Origin: Amoebophrya sp. A120 | Taxonomy: Eukaryota > Protista > Dinoflagellata | Direction: 5' to 3' | Assembly (NCBI GenBank): GCA_905178155.1 | Contig: CAJINV010000017.1 | Location: 1,472,269-1,536,268, forward strand | Length of the DNA: 64,000 nt | Part shown: positions 11,965 to 61,300 of the stretch, in pieces | Layout: each line of letters begins with the position of its first letter | How positions within the stretch are numbered: position 1 is the stretch's first letter | Notes under the pieces: generated by a model | What the model was told of the DNA's origin: nothing | The model's input: the letters and a program-made list of their open reading frames with translations, nothing else | Database searches by the model: none | Translations under genes and position numbers: made by a program

Positions 11965-14900
11965 ATGGCTAGTATGCGGTGCGATCTTTTTCCGGAGGCG
12001 ACCGATTCCATTCCGGACGCTTTCCGGCAGAAAACTGGGTGTGGTCGGCGTCACCGGGTACGGAACGTGCCGGTTCTTGGCGAGGCAGGAGGTAATTGTG
12101 TTGAACGGAATGAAATTCATGCAGTTCACCTTCCGAATGAGGAGGTAGAGGGTAGTTCCTCGAAAATAAACCATCATCAAGAGGATCATCATGTGACGAC
12201 CTACATCACCCACGTCGGAATTCACACGCTGAACCACAAGCAGAATCGTGCTGAGCCCCCGCGACATAATCATGAATCGCAAAGAGCCGACGACGAGGAA
12301 GATATAAAAAGCACTAACTTCTACCACGCGGAGCATCGGTACCATGTCCGAAACCTGTCCGGGACTTCTGTCTCCGAAACGAAGCAGACCGTCCAGCAGC
12401 TGCACCGGATTTACAAGATCAAGGGCACGACCGCGAACACGCACGCGGTCTCGCTTATCCTGAGTAAAAACGTACCCACCCCAGAGTTGTAATGCAGATT
12501 TGCAATGACAAAGACATTTGCGATGCGCATCCCCATGAGAGCCATTTCCAATCGTGTTTTGGAATTTGTGATGCTGTGAACAGGATCAGCAGGTCGATTT
12601 GTGATGCGGCTTTCCCTGCTAACTTGCACTACCTTACGGACTGAAACTTGTCATGCGTGACTCCCAAAGCTCCTAGGTTTATGTTGCAAAATCCCCATCT
12701 TGACTCTGGTGTGGGTACGTTTTTACTCAGGATATCGCTAGGTGGAGAAGGTTTTGTTCGAAGTTCTTGTGGAGGAGCATCTTCTAGCTCGTCTTCTTCA
12801 TCTTCTACATCGAAAATTACCGGTCCTCGCTCCAACAACAACATGTCTCCTGTTGCGCCGCCATGCAGTCTCAGTCGCGCTTTGGAAGAACCATGTTCGC
12901 AAAAATCAGGTTCAGCTAAAGAAAAAGATCAGGATGATGTTCTTGTTCATTCATCACCACAACATGCTGGTCAGTTGTACCCAGGAGTCGATATTGGCTA
13001 CCATGAAAAATTGCGTCGCTCGCCGAGCAAGGAGACAGGAGCGCCTACTGCATTAGGCGGATCCCTGCAACTGCCGTTACGGGAACGAAAAATATTGCCC
13101 GGTGTCGTCGACATGCCGCACGTATCACGGCATGCAACTGATGTTGACCGTACAACAAGTGACACCGTAGATGATGAGCAGTTTACTTCATCAGGCGGAG
13201 GTGCAGGCCATTTTCATCAACCGCGAATGGTCAACAACATCAGCCGTGAGCGCTCCACCGGACCAGCATCTCCTTCCTGTTTCGATGAGGATTTTCTGCG
13301 ACTGGACGACTTTTCCGACGAAGAAGAGTCCGCGTCTTCTTGCTCTACTACAGTGACACTCAACACGAGCTGTAGTCGCGAAATATTCACACCTGCTGGG
13401 ACGAGGACAACTGGAACGACCAGCTGCCTGGGAGATGATGGAACGAGCACGACAAATAACAATCCCTATTTTTGCCACGATTTCGACGTTGCTTTTCCGG
13501 ACTCGTCGGATTTCCCTGTTTCGTCTGACGAGGCAGACACGGACGAAACAAACAGAACGGCCGCTCCGGGCGCGAACGATCGCAGATCTTCCGTGTTGAA
13601 AAGAAGAAGGCCGAACAAACTGCGAAATTATATGCAGAAAAACAGCTGCAAAGTGCAGCAGGTAGCTCTCAGCTATTCGCCGTCATCTTCCGAGTGGTCT
13701 ACGATGTCTCCAAAGAAAGAAGTAGACGAAAAGCAGCTGCTACCGCGAGCCCTGACTGAAGCCACGGACTCGACAAGGTGCAGTAGCAAAATAGAAGGGG
13801 AGATAGATGCGTTGATTCGGGAATACGAGGACAGTGAAGGCATCGATTTTGACCGTAGATATCTGGTGGAAGAAGAAGCAGCGCGAGCAGGACGAGGAGC
13901 ACGACCCCGGCCGGTGTCTGATGATGGGACGAGAACTTCTGCAGTAGTTCCAGCGTGTGCAGCTACAGCAAATACCACCAGCACAACGAGACCCTGTAGA
14001 AGTCCTCCTCCACCTACCGCGACTACATCGAGAAGTTGTAGTACGAACACGTCTTCAACAAGAATAAACAAGCTTGTCACCCCAAGAAGCCGCACGCAAG
14101 TGGAGCCCTTCCACGACCTCCGCTGTGAACTGGTTCTCTGCTTCATCCAGTTTTCGAATTTCATCTTCATGCAGGCTTTGAAAATGAGCGACGAGGTGAT
14201 CAGCAGCATCTACCCATTGTTTTTGGCCGTGTCGCAAAACTTGATGAAGTTGGTGATCTTTCCGGACTTTTTACTTCCCTTGGGAAAGTGCAAGAGGGAA
14301 ATGGTGGAGATAAAAAGGCCACAATCTTCTTCAACAGCAAGAAGAAGGTCTGGCGGTTCATCTCTACAACCTCCACACGAAAAGATGAGCAGCAGCAGCA
14401 GCAGGAGCGAGGGTGCTGATTTCGACAAGGGGCCTCTTCTGGCGGAATGGATTACGCCCAGAAGCAAGGAAGTGCGAGTGCCGTCGAGGAAAGGTCCAGC
14501 CTCATCGTCTTCTCCTTGTGCAGCTTTGTTTTCGGCCGAGAAAGGTTCTGCTGGCAGCACTACATCTACACCCGTACAACATCATGTTAGCAACCCTGAT
14601 GAAATAGAACAACAACTACAACTACACCATGAAAAAATAAACAACGATGAACTGGTTTTCCTGTACCTGCACGGTGGATCGTACTTGCTGATGCATCCGG
14701 CGATGAATCGTTTTTTCACGCACAAGCTCGCGGTAAACATGAACGCCAAGGTGTTTGCGCCGTACTACCGGAAGCCGTTCGACAATTTCTTTCACCGGGT
14801 TTTCTGCGTCGAAGCGATCTTGCATTTTTTCCACTACTTCTACGTAACGATCGCGGCCGTGTTTCTGGTCACCTGGGAGGTGTTTGTGTGCAGCGAGGAA

Positions 14901-16508
14901 ACTTTGGCGACGCGGGTGCGCAAAATAAATGTTGGCGGTGCAGGAGGGAGAAATGATACAACGACGGTGGTATCGTTTTTTGAAAGACGCGAAATTTAAT
15001 CGCTGGGGCTGGAGCTGGTGACGAGTTGCGGTTGCGTTTCTTGCAGAATTTGCCGGGAAAAAGTATAGAATTTGACTTAATTGTTTTTTGAACTTTAAAT
15101 TTGCACGAAGAAAACGAATGAATCACGACGGTATGACGGCGAAGCCTCCGCCTTTTGCAGCCGTCATGCACAGATGCATTTTTTAATGCATGTTATTGTC
15201 CCTATTCGCGAGCACCACATCCTGCAATGATTTATAATGATCACGATGCATTCATGAATGGAGTCCAGTACTTAAGAAATCATCGAGCGCCATGTAATGC
15301 TTTGATTTTGACAGATTGAAAAAAAAAAATAAAAGTATCAAGATTGAAAAATCGAAATCCAGATCTGACCGTCAAAGACAGCCTGGACGATGTGATTCTG
15401 TCCTACACGCACTTGTTGAATAACTTTCACATCCATCCCCAGAACATCATCCTGATCGGGGAATCCGCAGGCGGCGGCTTAGCGTTTTCCGCATTGACGC
15501 AGATCCAGAAACTAAACCTGCCGCTCCCCAAGGGAGCCGTTTTGCTTTCCCCCTGGGTAAGTTTGGATCCCTTGAGCAACGAGTCCAAGGTGTACAAAAG
15601 TTGCACGACGAGGAACCTTATCAAATGCAAACATGTCTGGGTCTTGGAGATTCCGACATTCGTCATGCTAGTCTTGCATGACTCTGAACTCTGTATTGCG
15701 TGGCCGCGAAGAGCTTCCACTCCCTGTCATGCAAAAACGCAGTTTCTCATGCGGAATACGCAACTCAGCACCATGAAAAAAACTTGTCATGCTTGGCAGC
15801 GCATCACAGGAAGCTCACTATTCCCTTCCTTGCATCACAAGTTTCCAGACCCAGACACTTTTGCAATGCATAAACCTCTCCGTCGGAACGGTGCAGCGCG
15901 ACATCATCCAGGAACACGCGGTCACTGCTACCGGGAAGTTGGTCAAAATGTCGAACGCGTTGGCTGGGGCGGGAGGTGGAAGTCGTGTAACTTGTCCCTC
16001 TGCGGGGCGGGCCTCGGGCGAGGATTCTCGGATTCAATGTGAGGACGTCGACACGTCGAAGATCGCAAGTGCCTGGTACGTCGACCCGCTCACCGAGGCG
16101 CACACCACGACACTGGATCTACCCATCTTCGTATCCCTAGCCGGGAATGAAATTCTCCGCGACGACGCGATCGACTTTGTGTACAAGCTGCGGGAGCGGG
16201 AGAGGGAAAGGCAGTCAACATCGGCGGAAGACGAGCGTGGGGTTTTGGGAACAACTGAGAAGGATTTGAGAGTGAAGGAATTCCAGGGTCGCAGCGGGGG
16301 AAACAAAAACTACAACTGTGGTAGTGGTTGTACTTCTAGCGCCAGCACTTTTGGAAGAAGTAAAATCGGACTAGAAATTTTCGACGGTTTGTTTCACGCG
16401 TTTCAGGTCTGGCTCATGCTCGTCGACCATCCCTCCGCGCAACTGTGCCTCCGGCGGGGCGTGGATTTCATTCACCAGAAAAGCGGACAAGAACGCCGGC
16501 GGGGGTAA
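11965..16508 (+). CDS. Hormone-sensitive-lipase-family alpha/beta hydrolase with a long disordered N-terminus (spliced)
   Basis: YLHGGSY, GESAGG, GNEILRDD and DGLFHAF motifs. Frames join after removing the introners at 12456-12734 and 15619-15872. One further intron (~14800-15360) has boundaries I could not resolve. Confidence 0.8.
12456..12734. mobile_element. Introner family A (279 bp), opposite orientation to the other A copies
   Basis: TIR TATCCTGAGTAAAAACGTACCCAC; TSD TCGCT at 12451-55 and 12735-39. Removal gives HAVS-LGGEG in frame. Confidence 0.95.
15619..15872. mobile_element. Introner family B (254 bp)
   Basis: TIR TATCAAATGCAAACATGTCTGGGTC / GACCCAGACACTTTTGCAATGCATA; TSD AACCT. 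Removal gives TRNL-SVGTVQRD. Confidence 0.92.
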
Positions 16509-18785: not shown

Positions 18786-20645
18786 ATGTCACTATCGCTT
18801 GGAAATAACCTGCATCCTCGCGCCAAAGTGGACGTGTGGTTTGCGTCCTTGAGAAAGCATCTTTTTGTGGCCGTCGCCCTTCTCTTCGGGAGCGGAATTG
18901 TGGCTTTTCTCGTGGTCAGTTTACTGCAAGCCTTCGACCAACCGAGGCATGCAGTGCCGATACTGGGATTTGAGAGGAAGAGCGGGAATCATGTGCCGCT
19001 GCGAGAGTCTGTTTACACAACAACAACTCAGGTGGGCGGAAGTGGTACAACAGCCACATCCCCTTCTGCAGAAGCTCCCCCGGGCGTGGTACCATTACAA
19101 CCGTCCAGTGTGGCTACAACCGCGTCACAAGATATGACCGCAATTCCAGGAAACAACGCAGCTTTGGTCAAAGGATCGAGCGGTGCAACTTCTAGCATGA
19201 CACAGAACTCCGTTGCAAGAACTTCTTCAACTGCATCCACGGACAGGACGGTTCAGACGACCAAAACTGAGTCCGCCACGGTTGCGACAGCGGGTTTGCA
19301 GGTAACGCCCTGGTTCGCGGAAAAATCAAAGACCATGTCTGGAGGTTTGCCTAACACTTCCAGCGCAGGCACAGCAGTTAGTAGTGGTGCAACTGCTACG
19401 TCGTCGGGTAGTACAGCCGCGCCCCCTGCTGTTCTAGGTAGCTCATCGTCATCGTCTTCTGTACTAACCTCCCCCGCGACCTCCGTCCAAAGCGCAAATA
19501 CACAGCCTGGAGGTGCGGGCGTTCCCCTGCTCAGCTCGCAGAACAGCCGACAGAAGGAGTCTGCGCTCGACCCTACCCACGACGCGAGGGAGAACGCATT
19601 CGAGCGGATTTACAAACACAACCTCTGGTCGCCGGAGGGGAGCGGCAGCGGCCCGGGGAGCCGCGTGGACGCCACGGTGGGGCTCCGGGAGCATTTGCAC
19701 AGTGTGATAAAGTCGCGAAACATCAACATCATGCTGGACATTCCCTGCGGCGCGATGGAGTGGACGGTCGTGTTTCTGAACGAAGTTTGGGCCTACAACA
19801 AGGATTTCCAGTACATCGGCGTCGACATCGCCCAAACGCCATTGGTCCGGGCGAAGGCGAGATTTTCCGCGGAGAAGAACGAGAAGAACCTCCAGCTCAT
19901 GCAGGCGGATTTGTCCCTGCGCTCGCCCGCAAACGCGGGAATTTTGGAGAAGATCAACGCCGCCTTGACCACTGCGGAGGGACGGATCAAGGGCAAAGAA
20001 ACCAACGCGGTCGCCTTGACGAGAGACGCGCTGCAGCATTTGTCGCTGAAGTCCGCGTGCCAGTTCGTGATGAACATTCGGGACGCGACGGTGGGGAAAA
20101 ATCACCAACTAGACACCTGGCTGATTGGCCACTACCCAAGGGGAGGGAATACGCAGGTAGACTGTAATGTTGTGGGATCGACGAGATGAGCCAGACGAGC
20201 ATCAGCATGCTACATAGTTTGTGATGCAGTAAAATGTAGTCGTGACTCGTGAGATTGTATCAAAAGCAATGACGAGATGACATAAACTCAAACAATTTAT
20301 CGCCTCACTCAGGGCGCCATAGATGGCGGACTGATCGACAATAACATGGCTTCGTGGCCGTACAAGCTCGGGCAACCAAAGGCCGTGTTGCAGGAACGAG
20401 GCTACCTCCCTCGGGGTGCGCCGACAAAAAATCTCGCGGTGTTTCGACCCTGGGAAGACTGGAAGGCGGCCGATTTCAACTCCTGCGTGTCGTTTTTGCG
20501 AAAATTGTTTGGGAGGAGTGCAGATGTTGGGGAGTTACATGACGTAGGAAGAAGTGTCGTGAAAGAGGTTGAAGGTCATGCGCGAAAAAACACGCCGGTA
20601 GTGCCAGCACTTGCAGCTGCTATTGTGCCACCTCCACCACAATAG
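18786..20645 (+). CDS. Membrane-anchored class I SAM methyltransferase (2 exons; GT-AG intron 20157-20312)
   Basis: N-terminal TM segment, S/T-rich stem, then FERIYKHNLW..GSGPGS, MLDIPCG, YIGVDIA and DALQHL. Exon 2 is in frame. Confidence 0.8.
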
Positions 20646-21139: not shown

Positions 21140-24100
21140 ATGGAAAAAGCCATAGTGAATCGGTGGAACGACTTCGACCCCCTCGAGGAGGTCATATTGG
21201 GAATCGCGGATGACGCCTGCTTCCCGCCGATGGAGCCCGCTTGCCAGTCCGAATTTAACGACCAATACACGAAATACGGTACAAGCACATGCTGCCTTTG
21301 TTTGTCATGTGGAAAGAACCCGATGAATTTGTATCCGGAAGAACTGGACCGCAATCGATTTTTTTTTCGAGTGCCTCTGCAAGCACAAAAAATGTGATAA
21401 ATTGCCTTGCAGCTCACCACGCAGGAGCAGTGACTAACATAGTGAAGATGAAAATCACAAAGAATGAAGGTTCTTTCATGAAATGTTACCAGGTGCCAAG
21501 ATGAGCCACCCCTTCTCGGAGTATTTGCCGTGGCCAACAGGACCCAAGCTCAAGCGCTTTATTGACGGCGCAAATAAGGAGCTTGAGGGTACAACTTCCG
21601 ATTCTGGTTTTTCGAAACAAGTGCGACAAGGGTATTCGCTACCGGTCAGAAATGCAACATCTTCTTTCATTTTCCGTATTCCATTTTGTCGCCTCACGCT
21701 TGCGAAGATGAAAAGTAAACTCGTGAGTTCGTTCATCTACCCAAAATAAAAGGCATGAAGGACGTCCTGGAAGGCGAGGGTGTGATTGTGAAGAGGCCAG
21801 ACCGCAAGTTGTGCAACTTCAATGTCCAGACAAAAACGCCAGACTTCGAGTCACCAAACCAGTACTGCGTCGTGTGCCCAAGAGACGTCGTGATGACCGT
21901 CGGTATAATTGTCGGCGTTGCAGGACAACTGTTGCTGTTCTTTCTGATGGGTTGTTCGTGCATGACACTGTACTGCTGAGGTTTGCATGATGGAAAGATA
22001 ATTTTTTATCTACACGTATATAGTAATTGCTGCTGGTGCAGCACTTCATCTTTCAAGCTCACTAAATACATTTTTTTCCACAGGTAACGAGATCGTGGAG
22101 GCCACGATGTGCAAGAGAAGTCGATTTTTTGAGTACCGACCCTTCCGAACGTTGATCCGGGAATATTTCGACGCCGACCCCCGGATGATCTGGACCGCGG
22201 CACCAAAACCCATGATGGGACCGGACTCCTACAACACAGACTTCTGGAACTGGACAGTCGAGGAAAGGATTGAGAGGATGCACAAATACGAATACTGCCT
22301 GTCGGAGAAGGAAGTATGAGAATGAGTTTTTTGTTTGCAGCTTGCCATGTAGTGCAAATCGCCGCACTACAAATCATCATATTGCGTCGCAGCTTTCGCA
22401 AAACAAAAGCAAAACCGCCTCATCTCACTTCTATCGTGTCAATGTCCCAACATCGAAACTTCTCAGATAATGTTCGACGCTGCGGACTGCCTCCTAATTG
22501 GAAACATGATGTTCGTGCAACAGTCTATGGTCACCAATCTCGCCGGAATCCGATGGTTGAAGAGGCATTTCGCGCCAAAGGGAATTCAGGTATAGAACTT
22601 TTACAGGGGTGGGCCCTCTGATGATTTTGTGCTTTTTTCGTCCTCTTGGAGTGCACAGAGCTCGTGTAAAAGCGCTCCTTACTGATGTTACTTGACATGA
22701 GCAAATTACGAGCAAGATTTGGAATACTCAATACTAAGGTCCACACCCTGCACTTTCCCTATGACCTCTACCCATCACACACCGACTGCACCTTCGTCGC
22801 CGTGAACGGGCACACTGTGTTGACAAATCCGGACAGGCTATCCAAGGAAAAACTGTGTTAGAGTAGGTGCTTGGAGTGACAGCATGACAACTTTGTTTTG
22901 CATGACAGAGAAAGCCTGTCGCGCACACCTGGAGGGCGCAAGCCTCGTACCATACCATACCATGCACAGCTGGCACCTGAAAACGCATATGAAAGACGAT
23001 TTCATGGCTGAATAGCATGACAAATGTAAGTGTATTGCATTATCTGCATCACGGACTTACAGTTGCGCACTTTTTTTCTCGCATACAAGCCGGTGGTGGA
23101 AGAGGAAGTGAAAATCTTCAAGCAGAATGACTGGAGGCTGGTACTAGACGAGATGGTTTGAAATTTCTAATGCGTCACACGAATGCAAAAGAAATTTGTA
23201 TTGCGTCACACGAAATGTACGATATTTATGTTTATCAGGTCGATGTGCCCTACTACACGACCGACAAGGAGCACCCGCCCATGTGCCAGTCTTCCAGGTG
23301 GCTCTCTATTTATCCTGCGTAAAAACGTCCCCAAGCCCAACCCAGAGTCAAAATGGGAATTTTGGTTGTCGCGCAGGATTTGCTTCTAGACAGAGCAACA
23401 GATTTTGGTCCTCGCGCATGACAGGTGTGGAATCGTCGTCTACTTAGTCGTATCTGACTAGTGCTGTAGCCTCACGAGAAATTGATGAAATGGGTCAGCT
23501 TATCCTGATGTATGAGATGGAGAGGATGACAAAGTCCCAGACAGCATTAGAAAATGCGTCTCATGGGGCTGCGGATGACACACATGCAAAGTATGCAGAT
23601 CTGCATGAGAGCTCTGCGGTAGGGACGTTTACGTTTTTCCACACGATACTGCGAACCTGTTCTCCATCACGCCAAACAAAATCGTCTGCGAGGAGGGTTT
23701 ATGGATTGCAAAACGATCGCGCTAGAAGTGGGAATCGCATCACAATATCTTTTGCCAGATTCAACAAGAGAACAAACGGCGTTTGTCATGCAGAATCAGG
23801 TACATACAAAATCAAAACAAATGTTATGCAGGGTTGCAATTAGTACGAGCGCGATGGTTTTGCACAGGATACGGCGAGAAGCCGCTGATCAACTATTTGG
23901 AGGGTGAGCTCGGTTTTGACGTCATTGGCGTGCCGTACAGACAGGTAGAAAAGTCATTTTTCATGCATCACAAAAATACGTATCGTACTTCACAAGTGGG
24001 ATGAAAGTTGGGTTTGTATTCATGCTGATTGAGGTGGAGGATGAAAAAATCTGTCGTTCTTGCAAGACAGCTGCGCATCAAAACTAGGTAATTATCCGCA

Positions 24101-24244
24101 AAAAAAAAAAAGGTCTTCGAGTTCGGTGGTTCCCTGCATTGCTCCACCTGGGATGTCCGCAGAACGGGCGGCTGTAAGGATTTTTTCCCGAACCGCGAGG
24201 ATATTGAGGACGTGGGCTTGCACAACCTCACGGACCTGCCGTAA
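21140..24244 (+). CDS. Amidinotransferase (glycine amidinotransferase-like), multi-exon
   Basis: VNRWNDFDPLEEVILG, CPRD, FDAAD, HTDCTF, NPDRP, WLSMN and GGSLHCSTWDVRR motifs. It contains seven GT-AG introns plus three introners. Confidence 0.92.
22839..23085. mobile_element. Degenerate introner (247 bp)
   Basis: TAT...ATA ends with weak TIRs; TSD CAGGC/CAAGC; several GCATGACA motifs. Removal restores the conserved NPDRP. Confidence 0.8.
23311..23648. mobile_element. Introner related to family A (338 bp)
   Basis: Left end TATCCTGCGTAAAAACGTCCCC; right end GGGACGTTTACGTTTTTCCACACGATA; decayed TSD CTATT/CTGCG. Removing 23310-23652 restores WLSMNL. Confidence 0.88.
23700..23871. mobile_element. 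Introner family E (172 bp)
   Basis: TIR TATGGATTGCAAAACGATCGCGCT / AGCGCGATGGTTTTGCACAGGATA; decayed TSD GGGTT/CGGCG. Confidence 0.85.
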
Positions 24245-26294: not shown

Positions 26295-27470
26295 ATGGCC
26301 GCCATCGAGTTTCGGCGCGCCAACTTCAATCTGGAAACTGCGGTAGATGCGGACGTTAGCGCCCCTCTAAAACTCGAGCTCACCTTTGAGGTTCTCGACA
26401 TTTTGCCAAACGCCGTGGAGATGAAGCTTTCCTTTCTGCCGCCGGTAGATTTGGGTAGTTCCGACGACGAGGAGGATGTTTCCGAGGATTGTGAGGGCGC
26501 TGGGAATAACGCTGACGAGGACGACGACGATGTTGAGAATAACAAGACCGAAAAATCTACTGCGAACAAAAGTTCCAAGAAGCAGAAAGCGATTGACAGT
26601 AAAACCCTTTCGATTTTCGTCACCAATCCGGACGAGCAGATCCTGGACGAGATCGAGTGCGGTCCGTTCCAACAGAAGGGCAAGAGGTACGGCGTTCTCA
26701 AACGTTACATTCTCAACTGTTTACATGAATTTGTAATGCAAAACTGCCATCAGGATCAAGGTACTCCGTATGACAAACTGTGCACAATCTTAACAGCATG
26801 ATCATCCGTTCCAAATTTGTAATGCAAAACGCGCAATCTTCTTCCCGCTCTCACTTTTACTGTTCTTGCGTCACAGATTCACTGTTCCGTCACAGATTCG
26901 CGCAACAGTTGAGACTGTAACGTTTGACACCCCCATAAGAGGAGGGTGATTCTGGAAGGCCAGGCCCCGGACTATGACAAAGTTCCGGAGGCGTCGAAGC
27001 TGGACAACGGCGGACTTTTGCTGACTGCGACCTATAAGGAGCAGGAATTCTACCGCTGCGGCTGGTTTCTCTCCCACAATTTCAAGGACCAGAAAGTACA
27101 GCAGGAGTGGCAAGAGACGGGGAAACGCCCACTGACGGTGGATTTCAGGAAGGATTTGCTGCGCCGGGTGGATTTCGAGCACCCAATAGAAAACAGAACG
27201 ATAATCGAGTGGGCGGAGGAACAACCGGAGAACGGGTTGAGAAAAAACGCCGGAAAAATAAATAACGCCAGCAGCGGGCATAATAGCTCCCGATCGAGCG
27301 AAGCGAGCGGCTCGTCTGGTGGTATTCACAGTGGGGAGCAAGAAGAAAGGCACGCGACAAAAAGGCGGAGAGTTCAGGAAGGCGGCGGAAGGGAAAAAGA
27401 CCGTCCGTCGAGCGGCAGGTCCAGAGAAGGTGGTGGAGGGAAGAGTAAGCCGAAGTTTATCATTGAGTAA
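26295..27470 (+). CDS. ASF1: Histone H3-H4 chaperone ASF1-like (intron 26687-26941)
   Basis: LKLELTFEVL, DEQILDEIECGP, APDYDKVP and LLLTATYKEQEFYRCGWF motifs; an acidic insertion and a disordered tail. Confidence 0.85.
26688..26937. mobile_element. Introner family D (250 bp); its boundaries are GT-AG
   Basis: TIR TACGGCGTTCTCAAACGTTACATTCTCAACTGT / ACAGTTGAGACTGTAACGTTTGACACCCCCATA; TSD AGAGG. Confidence 0.9.
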
Positions 27471-36500: not shown

Positions 36501-36719
36501 TTTCCTGGATGAAAGTGTATGCTGAAACTGCAAAATGCCCTGGAGTGGATACAGCACACCGTGACGGGCAAGTCACAGAGACCAGCGGGGCAGGCGTCTT
36601 TGTGGACCCTGAAAATCCGAAAGGAAGATAGCTTCGCTACCACCTGCAAATTGCAATTGGTGGAGCAAGCGGATGAGAAAGTGCCGAGTTTTGTCGGGGA
36701 AGTTTTCAGTACGACGTGA
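33543..36719 (+). CDS. Protein with a C-terminal DXO/Rai1-family decapping exoribonuclease domain (4 exons, 3 introners)
   Basis: GYHFE, YGELK and KLKYWLQAYFGNINRVIVG motifs. ORFs 33522, 35115, 36089 and 36519 join in frame once the three elements are removed. Confidence 0.78.
34872..35181. mobile_element. Introner (310 bp)
   Basis: TIR TATCAAAGTGAAAAATCCCCCCACCCCATA / TATGGGGAGGGGGGATTTTTCCTTTTGATA; TSD CAAAG. Removal gives DETK-KHIFVG. Confidence 0.92.
35984..36262. mobile_element. Introner family A (279 bp)
   Basis: TIR TATCCTGAGTAAAAACGTCCC; TSD TGTTT. Removal gives VLCF-ETNTL. Confidence 0.95.
36312..36511. mobile_element. Introner (200 bp)
   Basis: TIR TATCCGGGAGAAAACACCCATCCCCATCC / GGATGGGGATGGGTATTTTTTCCTGGATG; TSD AAAGT. 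Removal gives QKK-CMLKLQ. Confidence 0.9.
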
Positions 36720-45700: not shown

Positions 45701-47010
45701 TTCGCATCACAGATTTGGCAGAGATGTGCGTCCTGTTTAGCCCTTCGGAGATTTGTCATGCGTGGCCGCTTGATCATCTGGAGGCTTAAGGTAGTTTTGC
45801 ATGGCAAATCCGTGTAACAGTTGATAATGTAACAGTTGAGAACGCCATACCAAAAGCGGATCTGTTCGGTACCATCGATCCCTACATCACTGTATCACAA
45901 GAAGAAGTGTTAACGTTAACGGTTTTCACAGATTGCAGTCATGCATCACAAATGTAGTTAAATATGCATCACAAATGTAGTTAAATATGCATGCTATGCA
46001 TGACAAATTTAGGCACGTTTTGCTTTTGTGATGCATTTCTGCATTACAAATTCCGTTAACGTTAACACTTTTTCCTGTGATACACTGTCAGCATCGTGGA
46101 GGGAGATCCGAAAGCACCAAATTACGACGGGCCAACGAAGGGGCGAGGTAAAATTTTTGATAGCCTTTATGTTTGTTTCGTAAAATCGAGCGCAGCAGTG
46201 AGAGTCGTTACAACAGTGTGCTTCGAAGTATTTATGGTTTTAACCATTTTTTGAGTTGTTTCTCCTCGCAACACAGCAGGTGAGATGAATTATCTGAATC
46301 AGTAATCTGCAAAACTGCTTGATAAAAAGATACATACATGAAACGTCGAACTGCAGGTCACGCGTCGCCGCTCGGGCACGGAAAGTCGGTTCCGATTAGG
46401 CAGAACCAGAACCCGGTGTGGAACGAGAAAATCAACATCGCTTTACCGGAGGAGCTCGTGAACGATTACGAAAACCTCTACCTGCACATCAAATATCCAC
46501 TGCAAAAGTATCGCACTCGTATGAATTGCAGATATGCATAGCAAATCTGGTTTCCTACCCAAATCTGCATTACAAATTCCAAGTTTCTTCCTGATAAAAT
46601 TTGTCATGCGATTTATACTAGTACGATACTTTTGCAATGCATATCAAGCTGTGGGACTGGGACTTCATGAAATCAGACGACATGATATCACAAGAAAAAG
46701 TGTTATACGTTAACGGTTTTCACAGATCGCAGTCATGCATCACAAACGTAGCCCAATATGCATGCTACGCATGACAAATTTTTACACGTTTTGTGATTCA
46801 TTTTTGCATCACAAATTCCATTAACGTTAACACTCTTTCCTGTGATACATGATCGGGGAGGTGGTTTATCCGTTAAAACGCGTTCTGCAGGAGGACACGA
46901 TGCAGATGACGTCGTTTCCCTTGACCGAGATAAAAAACAACCCGGACGAGTATGACTTGAAAAAATCCCGCATCTGGCTGAAGTTCTCAATCGCGAAGAA
47001 AAAGCAGTGA
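39774..47010 (+). CDS. TMEM65-domain + GAF + GAF + C2 fusion protein (~14 exons)
   Basis: TMEM65 motifs IPFIGFGFLDN, STMAAAALGNTFSD and GIVVGCILGMCPL; two GAF domains (SVLCMPV..AVNKK..FTHKDE; LCVPVI..EVINKK..F..HDIE); C2 (DLPKADLFGTIDPY, NPVWNE, LWDWDFMKSDDMIGE). Inferred exons: 39774-~40700, ~41854-41897, 42212-42355, 42659-42734, 43019-43416, 43668-43861, 44633-44747, 44913-44951, 45154-45611, 45854-45891, 46087-46147, 46357-46492, 46648-46684, 46852-47010. The start is uncertain. Confidence 0.8.
40701..41822. mobile_element. GC-rich 1.1-kb non-autonomous TIR element inside the TMEM65 domain
   Basis: 13-bp TIR GGTTTTCCCCAAA / TTTGGGGAAAACC; no credible ORF; bracketed by a 36-bp exon duplication (40667-40702 = 41853-41888). 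Confidence 0.7.
41899..42207. mobile_element. Introner family C (309 bp)
   Basis: TIR TATGGAAGCGTCAGGTTTGAAATCG...; TSD CCTGG/CCTGT; homologous to 59028-59334. Confidence 0.93.
42357..42654. mobile_element. Introner related to family A (298 bp)
   Basis: TIR TATCATATGTAAAAGCGTCCCCACGACCCCA / TGGGGTCGTGGGGATGTTTTTACATAGGATA; TSD CAGAA. Confidence 0.93.
42736..43014. mobile_element. Introner family A (279 bp)
   Basis: Family A TIRs and length; decayed TSD ATTCA/AATCC; interrupts the first GAF domain. Confidence 0.92.
43928..44486. mobile_element. 559-bp MITE of the introner class nested in the canonical intron 43862-44632
   Basis: Long TIR TATGGCGCCGTATACTATCTCAACG...; TSD TTCTT; additional internal inverted repeats around a GC-rich core. 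Confidence 0.92.
44749..44908. mobile_element. Introner family E (160 bp)
   Basis: TIR core GCAAAAGTATCGTA; TSD TTATC. Removal gives CVPVI-NTERH. Confidence 0.9.
44953..45149. mobile_element. Introner (197 bp)
   Basis: Ends TATCGCAAGAAAAAAATGTTTC / GAAACAGTTTTTTCGTGGGATA; TSD TGATC. Removal gives LEVI-NKK. Confidence 0.9.
45613..45849. mobile_element. Introner family D (237 bp)
   Basis: TIR TATGGCGTTCTCAACTGTTACA; TSD CCCAA/CCAAA. Removal gives DLPK-ADLFG. Confidence 0.92.
45893..46082. mobile_element. Introner family F (190 bp, with an internal tandem duplication)
   Basis: TIR TATCACAAGAAGAAGTGTTAACGTTAACGG; TSD CACTG. Confidence 0.93.
46494..46643. mobile_element. Introner family E (150 bp), opposite orientation to 44749-44908
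   Basis: TIR TATCCACTGCAAAAGTATCG / CGATACTTTTGCAATGCATA; TSD TCAAA/TCAAG. Removal gives LHIK-LWDWD. Confidence 0.9.
46686..46847. mobile_element. Introner family F (162 bp)
   Basis: TIR TATCACAAGAAAAAGTGTTA; TSD CATGA. Removal gives DDM-IGE. Confidence 0.93.
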
Positions 47011-49507: not shown

Positions 49508-52500
49508 ATGACAAGACGGGCCGCGGCTTCCCTTTTTGTCCTCGGAACTGGCGTCACAGCGCTGGACGAAAGCTCACCAGCAATGATGGGCATGGACAGG
49601 GGGAATATGAACTTTAAGGTGACCTGAGTAAAAACGTACCCACACCAGAGTCAGGATGGGGATTTTGCAACACAAACCTAGGAGTTTTGTGAGTCACGCA
49701 TGACAAGTTGCACTCTGCAGTGTAGTGCAGGTTAGCAAGTGCAGCCGCGTCACAGATTCGTCTGCTCATCCTGTATACAGCATCACAAATTCCGAGACAC
49801 GATGGGAAATGGCTCTCATGGGGATGCGCATTACAAGCCTTGCTGTCTTTGCAAATCTGCATTACAACTCTGGTGTGGGTACGTTTTTACTCAGGATATA
49901 AGGTGACCTTGATTGAGGACCGAAAACACGACCTGGCGCTCAACATCCACAGTCAGAGAAAAACACCCTCAGCGGTCTCCTTCGCGGGCAAAGTAAGAAC
50001 ATACGGCGACCAGGCCATCGCAAGTCAGAACAAGCAGGACACCGGGGCGTTTAGTTACATCAACAGGTAGAATTAATCTCGTACAGTGGTGAGAAATATT
50101 TTTTGTGACTGATGTGACGAGTTGTAGACCCTCAACATAATCTCATTTGCAGATTCAGAAGCGGCGGAGGGACGAACATACAGGCGTCATCAATACCGAC
50201 TCCACATAATAAATTCGAGTTTCTTCATAGAAAAGTCTTCATCAGCTTTCTATCATGCGACGAAGGCAAAGAAGATGATAAAGAGTTGATATTGTACGAG
50301 CACGACGAACCGCGGAAAGCGTCAAAGACGATGATCTGCTGAGCACGTTGAAATAATATATATTACAATCTCAATCGCTACTGTCAACACAGGCTACTGG
50401 GTCTGTCCGCCGCCGACTGCGACAAGGAAGACCCGAAAGAGTGCCTGGGGGACGTTCTCGGGCTCGACCGGGACTACTACCAATCTTACGGCCTGCACAA
50501 GAACGAGACGCGCGGCACTTTCGAATTGCTGACGGATAAGCAGAAGGAGGAGAAAATGTCCCTGGAACTGATCACCGCCAACATTCTGCAGTACGCGCGA
50601 GGTATCGCCGAGGACAAGAACGACGGAAAGGCGATTCGCGACGCCGTCATCACCGTACCAACGAATTGGAACCAGAGGCAACGGCAGGCATTGCAGGACG
50701 CCGCAAAAATTGCGGGCTTGAACAGCTTGTTGATCCACGAAACCCCGGCGGCGGCGGTCAACTTGGCGATGGACTGGGCCAAGGACACGACGGAAAACGT
50801 CTTGTAATATTTATTCGACAGAAGTTCTTGCTGCTTTAACACACTCATTATTGGACGACCACCTGCTGGTCAATTGATTTTTTCCACTCAGTACAGTGAT
50901 AGATTCTCGCGTCACCAGCAGCAGTTGGAGCATTTTAATAACTGTACTTCTATCTTCACCAACCTGATCAGGTTCTACAACATGGGCGCCCGCACCACGG
51001 AAGTGTGCATCGCCGAGTTTTCCCCCCGTCAGGCTGGTATGGTGGCTGGTCGCACCACGCCCGCCATTGTCATGAAGGGCTGCGTGCATGACGAGAGAAT
51101 CGGTGGCCATTTGGGGGATATCGCCATCGCTGACGAGATGAAGAAGCGATTCATCAAGAAGTACTGAATGTTTTCTTGCGACTTGTGTGATAGATTTGAA
51201 ATATGCGCTCCTTGCAGTCTGTGTTGACGCTGAAAATGAAATTGAAAACGCTCGACCATACCTGGCACGCGCACGGCCACGAATGGTACTATAATGTTGA
51301 CAGCTCATGATTGATTTCCACAGGTTCCCGAAGCTTTCTGACATCGAGAAGCACCCGCGTGCGCTGCGAAAGCTGTTGGGCCAGGCACTGAAGTCCAGAC
51401 ACCAGCTGTCTGCCGGGAAGGACACGTTTTTCTCCGTGGAAGGGTTGTACGAGGAGAAGGATTTTCAGACGAAAATGACCCGGGCGGAATTTGAGGACCT
51501 GGAGATGATGAAACAAATGTGGTCCATTCTCACCGAACCGATCGACGCCGTGTTGGCGAAGGCGCAGATGACATTGAAGGACATCGATCTCATGGAAATC
51601 GTCGGAATGGCCTGGCGCATGCCGAAAGTGCAAGAGGTACTCTTATCAAAAACGACGATGATGTCAGGATAGGTTATTTCTGCACTTTGTAGTTTTTGAT
51701 TTTCGTGCTTGTCCTGGCTCATTCTCATGCGCAGTTTTTGACATTTTTCTTTTTGCATGGCTGGGAGTTCGATGATCCCGAGCATGTTCATAGTGATCTG
51801 TTTGCTTTGAACAAAGAGATGAAATGAATTTGTGATGTAAATCATCATCATCAACTACCTGCTCAGATCCTGAACGACTACTTCTCGAAAGCGCAGGAAG
51901 CGCGGAAGGGCAAGGACCAGTTGGTCCTTGGACAGCACCTGAACGGAGACGAGACCTTCGTCCTTGGTGCCTCTTTGTTCGCCGCCAACCACTCCAGGGC
52001 CGTGCGACCGCCGAAGAGGGTCTTCTTCCAGGACACAACCCACGATCACAAGTATAATAAATTTCTATTTGTATCATGATTATATGTACTTAGCTTTGCA
52101 TCGTTGACGTTGCCCATGAGAAATTTGCTCTTTGTTTTTTCAACGGCTAGCACTTCTGCAGATGGGTACACGAAAGATAAGAAGAATTGAACTCAGCACG
52201 AAGAAACAGGATTCTGATCCAGCTTTTTATTTCAACATGACCAGCACAACTTTGATTTTTCGCCCAATTCTTACCCGCCCTACATCAGCTACACCATTGA
52301 CCTCCTGTCCCTCTCCGATGAAACGCCGATCAAGAACACCACCGATATCGCTTCCCTCGGGTCCCGCTATGGCGTGAAGAAAAAAATCACGGTGAGTGAC
52401 GCGAAGCAGGATTTTACCATTAAGCTCTTCGAGAACGGCAAATGGCTGACCAGCTGGACGATCACGGGCCTCGAGGAGGCCATCGAAAAAGACTACGCGC

Positions 52501-55439
52501 ACGTGGTCAACAACAGTACCAATCCGGCCCCCAAGGTCGCGTTCACCATCGGCCCGGATGCGAGTGGGGTCATCGGGATCTCCAAGAAGGTCGAGGCACT
52601 GTTTGTCGAGGAAGTAGAGGAGGAAGTTGTGGACGAGGAAGCTATGGCGGCCAGGAGAAAGTACTGGATTTGTTTGCAATTTCTCCACTACCATAACCAG
52701 TGAACACACGATCACGTCGACCCAGACAAAAAATAAATGATTGAAGATTTTTTATTCTCGCCACATCGATTCAACTGTTGGTTGTTACTGTTTATTGTGA
52801 TTGAAAATTGACTAAGTATGATACTTTTTGAGCTTATCGTAGACCACATAAATTCTTCTTCATCTTCCCGCACATGATCTTCGTATCAGGCGCAAGCTCG
52901 AGAAGGAACGTAAGGCGAAAAAGGCGAATGAGACGAACAGCACGACGAACAGCACCGAAGATAGCGCCGAAACCAACAGCACAACGGAGGAGAAGAAGGA
53001 TGAGACGGGTGAGAAAAAAGAGGAATCAACAGAAGAGAAAAAGGACGAGGATGGTACCACGGCAACTGACGAAAAGAAGGACGAGACTACTTCTTCTACC
53101 GAAGAAAAGAAAGAAACCGAGGAGACTTCTACGGAGGAGAAAAAAGCTGAGGAGGAGTCTGCGGAGGAAAAGAAATCTGACGGGGATTCAGCCGGCGCTT
53201 CGGAGGAGAAGAAGGACGAGACGGCTAAGGAAGATGCCGAGAAAAAATCCGAGGACGACGATCTGGATGATGACAAGCCCATCATGAAAACACGCATGAA
53301 AAAGAAGAACCACATCATCAGTTTGAAGGTAGAGATATGGAAATTCAAATTTCTGCTTTATGTATTGTCTATCGTGGCGGTCGTGAGCTTCAACTTCTTG
53401 AAGAGCGACACATTAAAGTCAGGCTATTTCGAGAGCGAGATATCACATCAGAAGGCCAGCGATTCTTGCAATTTTTCGGCATTTTGCGCAGCTTTTGGAG
53501 CTGTAAATGGCGATGCGCATATTGATTTTTCTTTTCAAATCTTCATTTTCATCAATTCAAACCACCAGGTCAACCGCGACGACGCGTTCCCGAAGCCGAT
53601 GACGCCTGAGGAAATTACCTTCGCACAGGACATGCTGTTTAAGATGACGAAGCACGACGCCGAGTCCGCAGAAATGGACGAAGTCAAGAACGATCTGGAA
53701 TCCTTCTTCTACGAAGCAAGAGAAAAACTCGAGTACAACGACGCTTACAAAACCGTGACCACCGAGGAGCAGAGGAAAGAGCTGCTCGACAAAGTCCAGG
53801 AGGTACTTAATTATACCTGTTGTCATGTTTTTATGTGCCAGATTTCATTGTAGTTTTCCTTTTCTCCAACTTGCTTCCATTTTTCCCAAATGGAGGACGG
53901 AGCAACGTAGTAACTCTAGCGTCGTGCTGCAGGGCTCCTGGCGAGGCTGCGCCCCCAGCTTACGCTTGTTTATGTTTTTCGTTCGGTTTCTTGAAGTGAA
54001 ATTTTTATCAAACCAATCCTCAGACCGAGACGTGGACGGAGGACGAGATCACGAAAGACACGTCGCTCGCCGAGATTATCAAATGCAAAAATGTCTGGGT
54101 CTGGAAGAATGCAACCTGTGATGCTAATTTTGGATTCTAGAAAAATCTGTATTGCATGACCAGCAAGAGGAGTCCAGTTTCTGCTATGCGGGGAGGCCAT
54201 TTGTCATGCGGAATAGGCATCAAAAAGCACTCAGAAAATCTGTGATGCCAGGGAATACATCACAGACGTCACGGGCCATGTAAAATCTACATGACAAGTT
54301 CGCATTCTTCCAGACCCAGACATTTTTACACTTGATAAAGATCAAGGAGAAACTGAAGGCCCTGGAGGAATTGATGATCCCGATCAAAGCCCGGGCGATT
54401 GAATTCGACTCCCGCGCGGACTTTATCGTGCTGATGGACAAGGAGGTCGGCAAAATCGAGGATTTGAAAACGAAAGTCAAGGGTATGCCCTGGCTGAAGG
54501 CGGAGGAAGTCGACAAGGCGCTGAAGAAGGTAGAGGATTTTGCCGCGGACTGGGACAAGAAGAAGGCGGAGCAGGCCGCCAAGCCGGGCCACGAGGAACC
54601 GGTCTTCACGAAGGCACAGATCGAGGGCTACTTCGACCGGTCCACGGTGGATCTGAAAAAGCTGTCCAAGGTGAAAAAGCCCAAGGAGCGCAAGACCAAG
54701 ACCCGCGGAGCCGGGAAGAAAGGTAGGGATCGATCGATCGTGGATTTTTGTGTCAAATAACAAGTAGCTTTGACGGTGACGATGTAGTAGACATTCATCT
54801 TGCTAATGGAGGTTCCGTCCATCGTACATCGTTGGTTTCGAGAACAATATTCTGCGTTAGCACGATAGTTTAGTTTTCGCGGAATCGGAAAGTTGGTATG
54901 CATGACTTTCAGTGATAAAGAGCACCTTCCTCTTGTGAGAAATTCATCGTATAAATATCATTCTGAACCCTCCAGCCGCCAAGGAAGACCCCCGCACTGA
55001 GGAGCAGCTGCAGGAGGAGCTGAAGAAGGTCGAGAAGGAGTTGGAAGACATCAAGGCCAAGAAGATGGAGGCCGTCACCAAGGAGGACTATGACGAGGCG
55101 GACAAGCTCAAGCAGGAGGAGAAGACCAAAAACGCGGCCGTCGAATCCCTAAACGCAGCCATGGAGGCACTGAAGGCGAAAACCGCGGACAAGGAAAAGA
55201 AGAAGGACAGTGGGTCGTCTTCGAAAGAAGCAGGAGAGAAAAAAACCGAAACTTCTTCGGAAGAAAAGAAGAAGTCGGAATCCGATGAGGATGCGAATAA
55301 ATCGGATTCCGATGCAACTGCTAGCGGGGACGCGAAGAAGGAAGAGACGAGTGGGGAAAAGACAACCGGTTCATCGGAGGAAGCCGGTGCGAAATCGAGC
55401 GACGAGAAGACGGCTGGGGAGGAACAGCAGGAGCTGTAA
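49508..55439 (+). CDS. HYOU1: ER Hsp70-family nucleotide exchange factor HYOU1/GRP170 (multi-exon)
   Basis: Signal-like N-terminus; SQRKTPSAVSF, DAVITVP, FYNMGA, HLNGDE and KNDLESFFYE motifs; acidic insertion; C-terminal QQEL. Nine GT-AG introns plus two introners. An upstream ATG at 49406 is possible. Confidence 0.9.
49620..49898. mobile_element. Introner family A (279 bp); its boundaries are GT-AG (49619-49902)
   Basis: Family A sequence; TSD TAAGG; the left terminus reads TGACC instead of TATCC. Confidence 0.95.
54077..54337. mobile_element. Introner family B (261 bp)
   Basis: TIR TATCAAATGCAAAAATGTCTGGGTCTGGAAGAATGC; TSD GAGAT/AAGAT. Removal gives SLAEI-KEKL. Confidence 0.93.
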
Positions 55440-58318: not shown

Positions 58319-61300
58319 ATGCCAACTACATCTTTCACATGTAGTGAACAAAATGCCCCGACATCACTTTCCCGGCAATGTGAAGCTCGCGGCGGTCTTA
58401 GAGGTGCAGACTCTGCGCCCGCTATCAATCACCGGCAGCACGGCCGGACTGTGCTTCGAATCCGCGCGCGCGCATTTCTTGCGTTGCAGATTTTCCAACT
58501 TCAATTGCACGACCGCGTTGCGTCATCATCGGCCTTTCCTGTTTCTTCAACTACGTCTTCTGCTACATCAACAGAAGAAAGGAGTGGAGGGCTAGGCCTT
58601 CGCGCTTCTAGACGACCAGCAGGAAGAACAGCAAGCGCCAACGTTTTACCGCACCTGGAGTTCACGCTCGACCTTTCAAAATCGCTAGGCGAGTCGACCT
58701 CAAATTTTGTCTGCGCGACCCTCGATTGGTGGCCGAGAGAGCAGAATGACGACGGCCGCTTTCCTTGGCAGTTTAACACAACGATTCCCTGGCTGGACGC
58801 GAAAAAACTTGTTCCCTTTGTGCGGGGAATGCAGCACGAGCGTCCTGCCCCTGCAGGTGGACAAGCGCCTCGCCCTCGCGAGCCAAGGGCACCAGATGGG
58901 AGAGACGCCCGTGCGGAGAACGGAAGTCGTGGGGCATCAAATGCAGGAAGCTACGTTCCTAGTACTACAGTTGAGCCCCCCAGTCGCGAGCGAGAGCTTT
59001 CTTCAACAATAAATCACCCTCCTGTCATATGGAAGCGTCAGGTTTGAAATCGCCAAAGTTGAAATAATTTGTGATGCATAAACTGCATAGCGCGAAATAC
59101 GTGTGTTGCAGAGCAGGCAAGGGAGGCCGATTGTAAGCCTGTTCGGGGTTAGAGCTCGAGCTGCTAAAGTAGCATGAGAAAATCAGTCCTCTTTGCCTAA
59201 ACAGCATCACAAACTGGATTTAAGCATCGCCAAAATTTGTCATGCGCTACTTGGAAACTGGGTTCCAACTGGCATCCATTTCATGCATCACAAACTATTT
59301 CAACTTTCACGATTTCAATCCTGACACTTCCATATGTCATCCTTCGTGTTGGCGGTTCCTGCGGCGATTTGATCATCTACGAGGAGCGGCTGGACGAGGA
59401 TGAAAAAGCGGTGCAGAGCTGGAACCATTTTCGGGAGACACACGGTACCTACCTCCCGAAATCTTCCTTCGAGCCCCACCCGAAACCGGAGCCCTGCCCC
59501 GACTTCGAGCCCAACCCAGACAACCCGCCTCTGTATTACACGAACGGCTGTTTGAAACGGGAGAAATTGAAGAATTTGCTGGAATTCTGCGAACAGGCGA
59601 ACTGCAAGATCATCTTCGGTTTGAACGGGTTGTTCGGGGAAAAACTGGTCCCTCTTCCGAACAAAAATCCGAAAATCCCCGACTACAAGTATTTCGGCCG
59701 GTGGAACCCGCGCAACGCGTTTTATCTGCTGTGGTTCGTGAAGTTTGTGCTGCGGAAATCGCACGTGATCCTCGGATTTGAGTTGGGGAATGAGCTAGGC
59801 GGGATTCCGGGCGTGCCGGTGAAATTCTCGGTGGAGCATTACGCAGCGGCGTATAGGATTTTGGAGAAGCTGGTGAGCTGGTTTAATGATAACGACGAAA
59901 CGGCTTTGGACTGGTCGGGCTCCTCCTCGTCGAAAGCGGCGAGTAAACTCCTGGACGGCCGCGGTGACAGAGCACTCTCCAGCACTTCGTGGAAGGTCAG
60001 TGACGAACAGCCACCGAGGCAGGAGGATTATGATGTCGCAGAAAATATTAAACCTCGACCCCACGACGGTGCTTCTTCTTCAACAGCGAAGAACACGTCG
60101 TCGAAGAACACGCCAGCAGTAAAAACAACAAAGACAGCCTGGCAGCTCTTCGGCGTCGCGAGTTGGTTCGACTACGAGTGGCTTCGGCGGTTCCAGGAAT
60201 TGCTGAAATTTCCACACTTCACCTTCACCACCCACCTCTACAGCCTCGGGTCTGGGCCGGGGCAAACGAGGAAGGCGTTGATCGAGGGAAAAATCCTGAA
60301 CGCGACCTACCTGGACGAAATGCACACTGTCGCGAGAAGCAACAAACAACTTCTCCACCACTTCCGAGAAGACTACGGGCCGACGAAGGACAAAAATTTG
60401 AAGATCATGCTGGGCGAGTCCGGGGGCGCGTTTGGGTCCGGGGCAACAAACATCACCGACGGTTTCTACTCGGGGTTCTGGTTCCTGGACCAACTCGCGA
60501 TCTTCGCCATCCACGGGGAAAACGTGCATTACTGCCGGCAGACGCTGGTCGGCGCCTTTTACGAATTGGTGAGCGGGGAGTTCTATCAAATGTAAAAGTG
60601 TCTGGGTCTGGAGAAAAGCAGCGCTTGTCATGAATATTTAGCATGACCCCTGATGTCTCTGATGCATGCCCTAGCATCACAGATTTGTTGAGGGCTTTGC
60701 GATGCCTGTACTGCATGAGAAATGCCCTCTCCGCGTAACAGAGAATGGACCTCTTTTGCTGGTCACGCTATACAGATTCTGTGTAGAATCCAAAGGCAGC
60801 ATCACAAGTTGCAACCTTCCAGACCCAGACATTTTTACAGGTGATAAGTTCCTGGTCCCAAATCCGGACTGGTACGTCAGTTCGCTGTGGAACTTATCAA
60901 ATGTAAGAATGTCTGGGTCTGGAAGATTCTGAGACTTGCCATGCATGTTTTGCATTGGCCATGATGTCTGTGATGCATGCCCTAGCATCACAGATTTTCT
61001 GAGGGCTTCGCGATACCCATTCCGCATGACAAATGCCCTCTCCGCGTAGCAAAAATTGCACTCCCTTTGCTGCTCATCCAATACAGATTTTTTTGGAATC
61101 CAGATTCAGCATCACAAGTTGGTTCTTCCAGACCCAGACACTTTTACATTTGATAGAACTACTTCATTCGGGAAGGTGGGGAGTTTCTGGAGATTAAGGA
61201 AAGCGCTGGGGTTTACTTGCCGCAAGTTCTTGCAAATGGAGAAAAATACGATCCTCTTCGTTTTGCAGATGGTGAAATAAATGGGTGGAGTTATAGTGTA

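Follow-up and report, generated by a model that had tools for sequence, protein, structure and literature searches.

In a 64,000-nucleotide stretch of the genome of Amoebophrya sp. A120 (contig CAJINV010000017.1; hereafter the window), 24 intron-like elements that run from TAT to ATA share an internal motif, GCATNACA, which is real, common to the element families and under selection. We class the elements as A120-type introners that resemble miniature inverted-repeat transposable elements (MITEs), and do not place them with IS3EU or hAT elements. We tentatively propose that the motif is a conserved, phased site that would be bound on double-stranded DNA (dsDNA) by a predicted transposase-derived or end-binding protein and would still be needed by the host after insertion. 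That one dsDNA-binding protein recognises the motif, a statement common to this proposal and to the two rivals that see in the motif a pure transposition signal or a site for a host protein, is very probable.

The motif occurs 79 times on the two strands of the window, against 7.73 ± 2.59 copies expected, and none of 100 shuffles reached this count. Although the 24 elements (6,242 bp) make up only 9.8% of the window, they contain 72 of the 79 copies (11.5 per kb), with at least one copy in each element; per-element dinucleotide shuffles gave a mean of 1.9 copies and a maximum of 7 in 500 shuffles. The 20 GT-AG introns (3,971 bp; 19 with listed joints and one inferred) contain four copies, where shuffles gave a mean of 0.87 and at least four copies in 7 of 500, and 16 of these introns are motif-free. 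Three copies lie in the other 53,787 bp, and none was found in 21,346 bp of hand-delimited intergenic and untranslated-region (UTR) DNA of the window. The original prediction, that the motif recurs within elements and is sparse outside them, thus holds, as does its enrichment over composition-matched background; the element at 45893–46082, for which about five copies had been claimed, contains exactly five. At position 5 of the motif, nearly all element copies (1,498 of 1,519) have G, C or T. The extended site, approximately (T/C-rich)GCAT(G/C/T)ACA(A/G)(A/G)TT, presumably resembles the animal Sox-Oct composite element.

The 24 elements were split into 11 groups by BLAST and local alignment (Table 1; the family letters are our own), with four degenerate elements positioned via RNA joints or by eye. 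In a terminal logo of 497 elements, T-A-T appears at frequencies of 0.99, 1.00 and 0.98 (TAY was demanded by the search) and A at positions 11–13 at 0.74–0.86, the AAA being missing in some families (D, E and others). The families had been described as carrying unrelated terminal inverted repeats (TIRs), which is overstated: a TAT (rarely TAC) start is common to all, AAA mostly follows at positions 11–13, and 22 of 289 terminal 13-mers were found in more than one cluster. A perfect direct repeat of 5 bp accompanies 461 of 625 elements, and repeats of 3, 4, 6, 7 and 8 bp accompany 12, 4, 0, 1 and 1. All 24 elements of the window appear to lie within coding sequence, and the ~21 kb of intergenic DNA is free of them, a distribution suggestive of exon targeting. 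The host genes lie on the + strand, and some were named by Pfam.

Contigs from RNA-type runs, whose RNA nature is a guess, skip at least seven elements singly and at least one within a compound joint. Two unambiguous joints cut 1 base before TAT and 4 bases after ATA, and the other joints are compatible with this register. In the DNA-type run X1, a 10,872-bp contig (15845–26716) crosses three elements intact, and none of the element-skipping joints listed comes from X1. Raw reads from RNA runs X9–X11 (10, 207 and 416 placed) matched only parts of elements or a single UTR-like stretch and gave no joints. About 230 raw RNA reads of run X11 (49624–49662 and 44044–44061) link a family-A-like end to a motif-bearing stretch via 28 further nucleotides. 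This points to a related element that is expressed in another strain. Constraint on the terminal bases depends on the direction of transcription, as expected of splice-site positions, and the tips are probably read on RNA. Among elements in the window and in loci L121–L246, position 1 changed in 1 of 434 cases at the 5′ end and 12 of 439 at the 3′ end, and position 3 changed in 13 of 432 and 3 of 432, respectively. The first T is almost invariant at the 5′ end, while the base kept best at the 3′ end is the A that lies 7 bases upstream of the 3′ cut, which we would guess to be a branch point. All 20 GT-AG introns of the window start with GTA, and the TAT of an element, placed after any base, therefore mimics donor positions +2 and +3.

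The motif was replicated in DNA that has only the elements in common with the window. Scanning metagenome contigs with a family-A end yielded 126 such loci that total 847 kb, or 728 kb once redundancy is removed; every locus is on a contig named JACKZZ01. The same end had no matches in viral contigs. A motif-blind search of these loci recovered 485 elements, and none in shuffled sequence. Among the 473 elements of at most 450 bp, 461 contain the strict motif and 469 a matrix hit, and together with the window's elements they form 23 clusters with up to 134 copies each in the sample, including families not present in the window. The density of the motif is 11.1 per kb in element-like DNA and 0.30 per kb elsewhere (160 copies versus 53–56 expected), and both the unrelated nested inserts (5,953 bp) and the 1,186-bp insert of the window (40703–41888) are free of it. 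When each family in turn was left out of training, the matrix still detected the site in every one of the 11 window groups (1–21 sites per group, 79 in total; null at most 2 per group). Stretches with a paired-motif pattern (~290, mostly 2–4 copies per locus) occur at about the chance level for 16 fixed bases, by a rough estimate. Exclusions comprised 12 of 485 elements longer than 450 bp, duplicates (3 of 497 and 3 of 618), 1 of 626 with poor termini and 7 of 625 with more than three mismatches in the duplication.

The copies are arranged in register with the element ends. Across 47 lineages from 21 equally weighted clusters (5 of 52 lineages, shorter than 140 bp or longer than 450 bp, were left out), outward-pointing copies peak at 31–34 and 41–44 bp from the terminus. 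In the same set, same-direction copies spaced 31–33 bp apart number 10.5 versus 1.6 expected, and the strongest spacing period is 10.5 bp. Neither the end-distance pattern nor the spacing peak was matched by any of 1,500 random placements. Inward-pointing copies showed no significant peak from the terminus, and no phasing was seen relative to the ends of GT-AG introns, for which a crude caller was used (of its 16 calls in the window, 5 were exact and 8 overlapped known introns). Such phasing would be expected if a protein bound at several sites along the same face of B-DNA. The two end-to-site distances, one helical turn apart, presumably recall the 12/23 spacers of RAG signals; a rule that pairs one end class with the other did not emerge among the elements in a lineage placement analysis.

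To measure selection, we counted substitutions private to each copy relative to its four agreeing nearest neighbours in the eight largest clusters. For elements found motif-blind, the motif core changed at 381 of 13,292 positions (0.029), the element interior at 2,541 of 39,877 (0.064) and motif position 5 at 0.071; in a set based on hidden Markov models (HMMs), the corresponding rates were 0.035, 0.071 and 0.081. The gap between core and interior persists with two, three or six neighbours, and a neutral simulation produced no such gap (0.067 versus 0.068). Individual changes differ widely relative to the neutral rate, from A3>C (0.13), A6>C (0.24) and C2>T and C7>T (both 0.29) to the near-neutral A6>G (0.98) and C7>G (0.86). 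Outward-pointing copies near the ends are best conserved (0.028 versus 0.038). Within the TIR, positions 11–13 are conserved (0.012–0.022) while positions 4–8 are free (0.08–0.11), which argues for sequence reading rather than mere pairing of a stem.

These rates bear on whether the motif could be a functionless relic of common descent or a compositional accident, which we consider extremely unlikely. The ends are partly common between clusters, and distant members of one family fall near background similarity once the motif is masked, as a relic would allow. However, a relic would decay like its flanks, whereas core substitutions are half as frequent as those in the flanks and position 5 is unconstrained, and cross-family similarity outside the masked motif equals that of shuffled sequence (18.1 versus 18.1, 249 pairs). 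The claim that the families form one system with a common site for one trans-acting factor is well supported by inference, because the families have in common their ends, the 5-bp duplication, the motif, its helical phasing and base-specific purifying selection. The predicted factor may be a transposase or a host protein, and the evidence tends towards a site with a role in mobility as well as after insertion.

The likely ligand is double-stranded DNA rather than RNA, with the motif read by the predicted dsDNA-binding protein, because conservation is equal on the two strands, also in a family whose copies cannot pair. Gene strand was taken from a self-trained coding model, which called + for all 17 window elements scoring at least 3; this score was reached by 73% of elements and 8% of non-coding controls, and elements under the coding-score thresholds were omitted from strand and codon analyses. 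On the messenger RNA (mRNA), 695 copies lie in one sense and 629 in the other, with core rates of 238/6,547 (0.036) and 194/5,850 (0.033), respectively (p = 0.35). In family A, 474 of 477 copies point in one direction and are therefore unable to pair with each other (predicted core-to-core pairing 0.03–0.06), yet their core is conserved in both gene orientations (0.021 and 0.025). An RNA-level splicing signal, with the motif working in the pre-mRNA either as a protein site on single strands or within a hairpin stem, is for these reasons very unlikely, although the elements are removed from transcript-type contigs, constraint on the terminal bases follows the direction of transcription, and inverted copies fall within an extended stem in several families. 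Where inverted terminal copies could pair, position 5 is mismatched in 107 of 147 pairs, and the 10.5-bp phasing fits B-DNA. Tests of hairpin pairing, a single-strand RNA signal, a method artefact and a neutral relic led us to reject each of them as the main explanation.

DNA excision in some life stage, with the motif guiding an excisase by analogy with the internal eliminated sequences of ciliates, would account for a site that is strand-symmetric, phased and selected after insertion, as well as for the absence of GT-AG ends. It is nevertheless extremely improbable: the X1 contig keeps its three elements intact with no skipping joint in X1 among the joints listed, and the terminal constraint is tied to the direction of transcription.

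Whether constraint acts only before insertion, or also after it, was addressed with the flanking duplication. Its two copies are identical at the start, and their mismatch therefore dates the insertion. Mismatch amounted to 0.047, 0.032 and 0.105 at codon positions 1–3 and to 0.136 at four-fold sites, so that, even with both duplication copies taken as neutral there, at least 0.068 changes per site have accrued since insertion, which is close to the full rate of the interior and double that of the core. Relative to this clock, the core rate of 0.035 gives a ratio of 0.52 (95% interval 0.40–0.70, n = 448). A second clock, the 3′-minus-5′ difference between transcript ends at TIR position 4, gives 0.069–0.095. 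The duplication mismatch rises with interior divergence with a slope near 1 and an intercept near 0, and is therefore not an error made at the time of insertion. Using the crude intron calls, we also found that GT-AG introns without TIRs are about five-fold enriched in the motif (26 copies versus 5.0 ± 2.0 expected in 136 introns), on both strands and without phasing, and that leftover TIRs in the motif-bearing ones do not exceed background. These introns fit decayed introners, with or without lingering constraint. On balance, the evidence tips slightly towards a constraint on the motif that continues after insertion.

A motif that served transposition only would be expected to decay neutrally after fixation of a copy. 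As a pure transposition signal, it would be a subterminal transposase site kept in jumping lineages, with splicing performed by the ends alone. We hold this to be doubtful, but several observations agree with it: the architecture is that of the subterminal repeats described in PMC1636448 and PMC10368747, end-proximal copies are conserved best, and both the excess-ratio test and the strict subset include a ratio of 1. Moreover, the interior rate drops from 0.092 to 0.064 as more neighbours are demanded, so that some terminal-branch change is older than insertion. On the other hand, core changes that are seldom tolerated limit the neutral share accrued after insertion to ~0.01–0.03 per site, and both the duplication clock (at least 0.047–0.068), which does not reflect insertion-time error, and the position-4 asymmetry exceed this limit. 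The motif enrichment of TIR-less GT-AG introns is likewise not expected of such a signal.

The same enrichment, together with the lack of motif copies in the ~21 kb of intergenic DNA, would suit a host DNA-binding protein, such as a chromatin or transcription-coupling factor, with no link to a transposase; motif carriers would be tolerated in exons and mobility would need the TAT-N7-AAA ends only. The constraint is strand-symmetric and probably acts after insertion, and no transposase is known in A120 according to the text of PMC7789003. This explanation is unlikely, given the strict phasing of the motif to transposon tips and its absence relative to GT-AG intron ends, the 16 of 20 GT-AG introns that are motif-free, and the existence of other inserted elements that lack the motif.

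In the explanation that we favour, copies of the predicted protein would bind on one helix face beside the TAT-N7-AAA tip and would unite the two ends for cut-and-paste transposition with a 5-bp stagger, in the manner of transposases acting at subterminal repeats (PMC1636448, PMC10368747, PMC11406308). Such a protein would need only phased sites and the tip, which would leave the families free to differ elsewhere. The same occupancy may persist at the inserted locus and aid correct gene expression, a step that we put forward more cautiously; its most plausible host role would be to flag the element for removal during transcription; the cutting positions (1 base before TAT, 4 after ATA) would be read on RNA. 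That a transposase-derived protein has been domesticated as an intron marker, which on phased GCATNACA sites would hold the ends and direct co-transcriptional removal in an organism with no detectable U1 small nuclear RNA, so that intron identity would come from dsDNA and not from RNA, appears rather unlikely.

Several results weigh against the explanation that we favour. Position tests restricted to the window are borderline (P 0.02–0.09). In a stricter coding subset, the ratio of core rate to duplication clock is 0.72 (0.46–1.25, n = 249) and another estimator gives 0.84 (0.43–3.2), while elements with mismatched versus perfect duplications yield 0.71 (0.42–1.28). TIR position 4 was picked post hoc, and at the loosest threshold its comparison with the whole core gave P = 0.063. 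Both clocks sit at the ends of elements, which may mutate faster (TIR positions 4–8, as above). Family A shows a bias in insertion orientation (61:35), which is weak after eight tests. The families may be of ancient common descent: distant members of one family also approach background similarity once the motif is masked, and the clusters may share ancestry and hence not be fully independent. The text of Farhat et al. (PMC7789003) reports no transposase in A120. Finally, no long TAT…ATA element with an intact transposase-like open reading frame (ORF), as the original prediction had suggested seeking, was found in the window and the 728 kb of loci (<1% of the ~115-Mb genome), and six ORFs from two long elements matched no Pfam family.

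That search listed 12 elements longer than 450 bp and 113 orphan ends. Of eight long elements inspected, most are short elements with unrelated inserts of 200–900 bp. The element at L129:6184–6998 (815 bp) has family-D ends and motif copies 44 bp from its left and 42 bp from its right end; a partial second copy (L140:6476–6921) is 98% identical, and the 815-bp element contains only short ORFs with no Pfam match. Its size is close to that of A120 families 38 and 196. Family 38 (808–810 bp) is annotated in PMC12130899 as 'Ginger; 5-bp TSD, TA/TA termini' (TSD, target site duplication) with integrase-like homology. By annotation, this family is our best lead to a candidate mobilising enzyme, which would be of the integrase-like class.

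The elements agree with published A120 introners (PMC7789003, PMC12130899) in their TAT start, followed by seven looser bases and at least three A, in direct repeats of 3–5 nt, in removal at mostly non-GT-AG sites and in a length of ~150–320 bp; sizes of ~150, 210, 260, 279 and 305 bp recur among 58 A120 families in the PMC12130899 supplement. They satisfy the description of MITEs in being short and non-coding, with a TIR, a TSD and many copies, and their subterminal motif recurs at set distances from the termini. In Emigrant/Lemi1 (PMC1636448) and in Hermes, with its BED sites (PMC10368747), short sites are likewise repeated within the TIRs, occur in either orientation, differ in layout between the two ends and are bound by the transposase. 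Unlike these MITE, hAT and pogo cases, a site of 8–12 bp is here common to more than 20 unalignable clusters, with 31–33-bp phasing and apparent post-insertion constraint. The duplication also separates the elements from known groups: it is 8 bp in Hermes (PMC10368747), a length seen here in 1 of 625 elements, and usually 6 bp in IS3EU/GingerRoot (PMC10045372), seen here in 0 of 625 against 461 at 5 bp. IS3EU/GingerRoot elements have TA…TA termini, as here, and encode an integrase-like DDE transposase in autonomous copies (PMC10045372); no autonomous copy was found in the window and the 728 kb of loci. Tn7-like ends with arrays of TnsB sites (PMC11406308) are similar in their 5-bp duplication, several spaced sites per end and unequal ends; these systems are bacterial, with 22-bp sites and autonomous genes, and the likeness is one of architecture only. 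Nonconventional introns of Euglena (PMC12501133) are also non-GT-AG and have short signatures at fixed distances from the junctions. However, those signatures lie 3–9 nt from the junctions and are directional, while the motif lies at least 31 bp inside and is indifferent to the transcript strand.

The elements have thus been published, and the motif was not found in the literature searched. Farhat et al. (PMC7789003) considered general transposase-mediated mobilisation to be ruled out and gave no family-linking signal beyond the ends. The searched text of that paper and its supplement mentions no shared internal motif, phasing or conservation, nor does that of PMC12130899. The motif strings are absent from 12 of 14 supplements of PMC12130899 (files 1–12), and the passages on introners in the reviews PMC11282704 and PMC11453091 do not describe the motif. 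Literature searches on Amoebophrya introners, transposase, MITE and the motif string did not return it either, a match in PMC6482013 being a primer. Our additions are a replication in independent loci, an analysis of selection, a comparison of strands and evidence on constraint after insertion. Published A120 work counts ~30,000 such introns in 1,954 families, with no transposase reported, no GT-AG ends and no U1 found, and leaves two questions, what moves these introns and what removes them. The motif collapses many families into one system, and a DNA site whose spacing and whose permitted and forbidden changes are known provides a ready probe, with negative controls, for isolating the predicted protein. 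If post-insertion constraint is true, the host would depend on a transposon DNA code for gene expression, which would be a new link from DNA-level recognition to intron removal.

Table 1 Elements and motif-bearing GT-AG introns of the window. Motif copies are given as strand and position.
Feature	Position	Strand	Motif copies	Remarks
Element, family A	12456..12734		−12488, −12567, −12600, −12649	TSD 5/5; opposite to other family-A copies, in + strand gene
Element, family B	15619..15872		−15725, −15785, +15801, +15832	
Element, clusters with 44953	22839..23085		+22882, +22900, +23015	Joint 22836>23089 in RNA-type contigs
Element, distant family A	23311..23648		+23416	Unambiguous joint 23309>23653: cut 1 base before TAT, 4 after ATA
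Element, family C-like	23700..23871		+23737, −23784, −23822	Unambiguous joint 23698>23876, 1+4 removal
Element, family D	26688..26937		−26732, −26818	
Element, single in window	34872..35181		−34917, +35014, +35098, +35130	32-member cluster with related loci
Element, family A	35984..36262		+36062, +36111, +36144, +36192	
Element, singleton	36312..36511		+36471	
Element, family E	41899..42207		−41941, +42075, +42158	Motif 42 bp from each end; skipped inside joint 40702>42208
Element, family A	42357..42654		+42438, +42524, +42578, +42609	Joint 42351>42655
Element, family A	42736..43014		+42814, +42896, +42975	Joint 42732>43017
Element, long singleton	43928..44486		+44051, variant −44356	GC-rich core; each copy 123 bp from an end
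Element, family C	44749..44908		+44801, −44828, −44859	
Element	44953..45149		−44985, −45097	
Element, family D	45613..45849		−45657, +45704, −45754	
Element, family F	45893..46082		+45943, +45966, +45998, −46027, +46041	Five copies
Element, family C	46494..46643		+46567, −46602	
Element, family F	46686..46847		+46737, +46769, +46806	
Element, family A	49620..49898		+49698, +49780, +49828, +49859	Left end altered; joint 49614>49899, GT..AG at cut +4
Element, family B	54077..54337		−54117, −54202, −54241	Joint 54072>54339
Element, family E	59028..59334		−59070, +59204, −59238, +59285	
Element, family B	60584..60846		+60674, +60799	
Element, family B	60895..61155		−60969, +60985, +61024, +61109	
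GT-AG intron without TIR	15063..15362	+	−15293	Bounds inferred from contig pieces
GT-AG intron without TIR	20157..20312	+	−20220	Strong copy
GT-AG intron without TIR	21903..22083	+	+21960	
GT-AG intron without TIR	23945..24112	+	+23965	

Other features of the window include a long palindrome (63–279) and two very GC-rich stretches (7000–8400 and 56400–58100), all motif-free and with no copies in the related loci. A related GC-rich insert of 800–890 bp, motif-free and with no clear TIR, occurs in three different introner families (L123:777–1570, L134:10142–11000 and L149:8924–9811). At 40668–41888, the 1,186-bp insert is flanked by identical direct repeats of 35 bp that consist of coding sequence (40668 and 41854), has a short TIR of its own (40701–41822) and is skipped in an RNA-type contig; two A120 families of 1,180–1,191 bp with a 16-bp TIR in the PMC12130899 supplement are of similar size. 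In the altered family-A element at 49620–49898, the left tip now copies the downstream exon and the 1+4 register gives GT…AG, as in an introner turning into a canonical intron.

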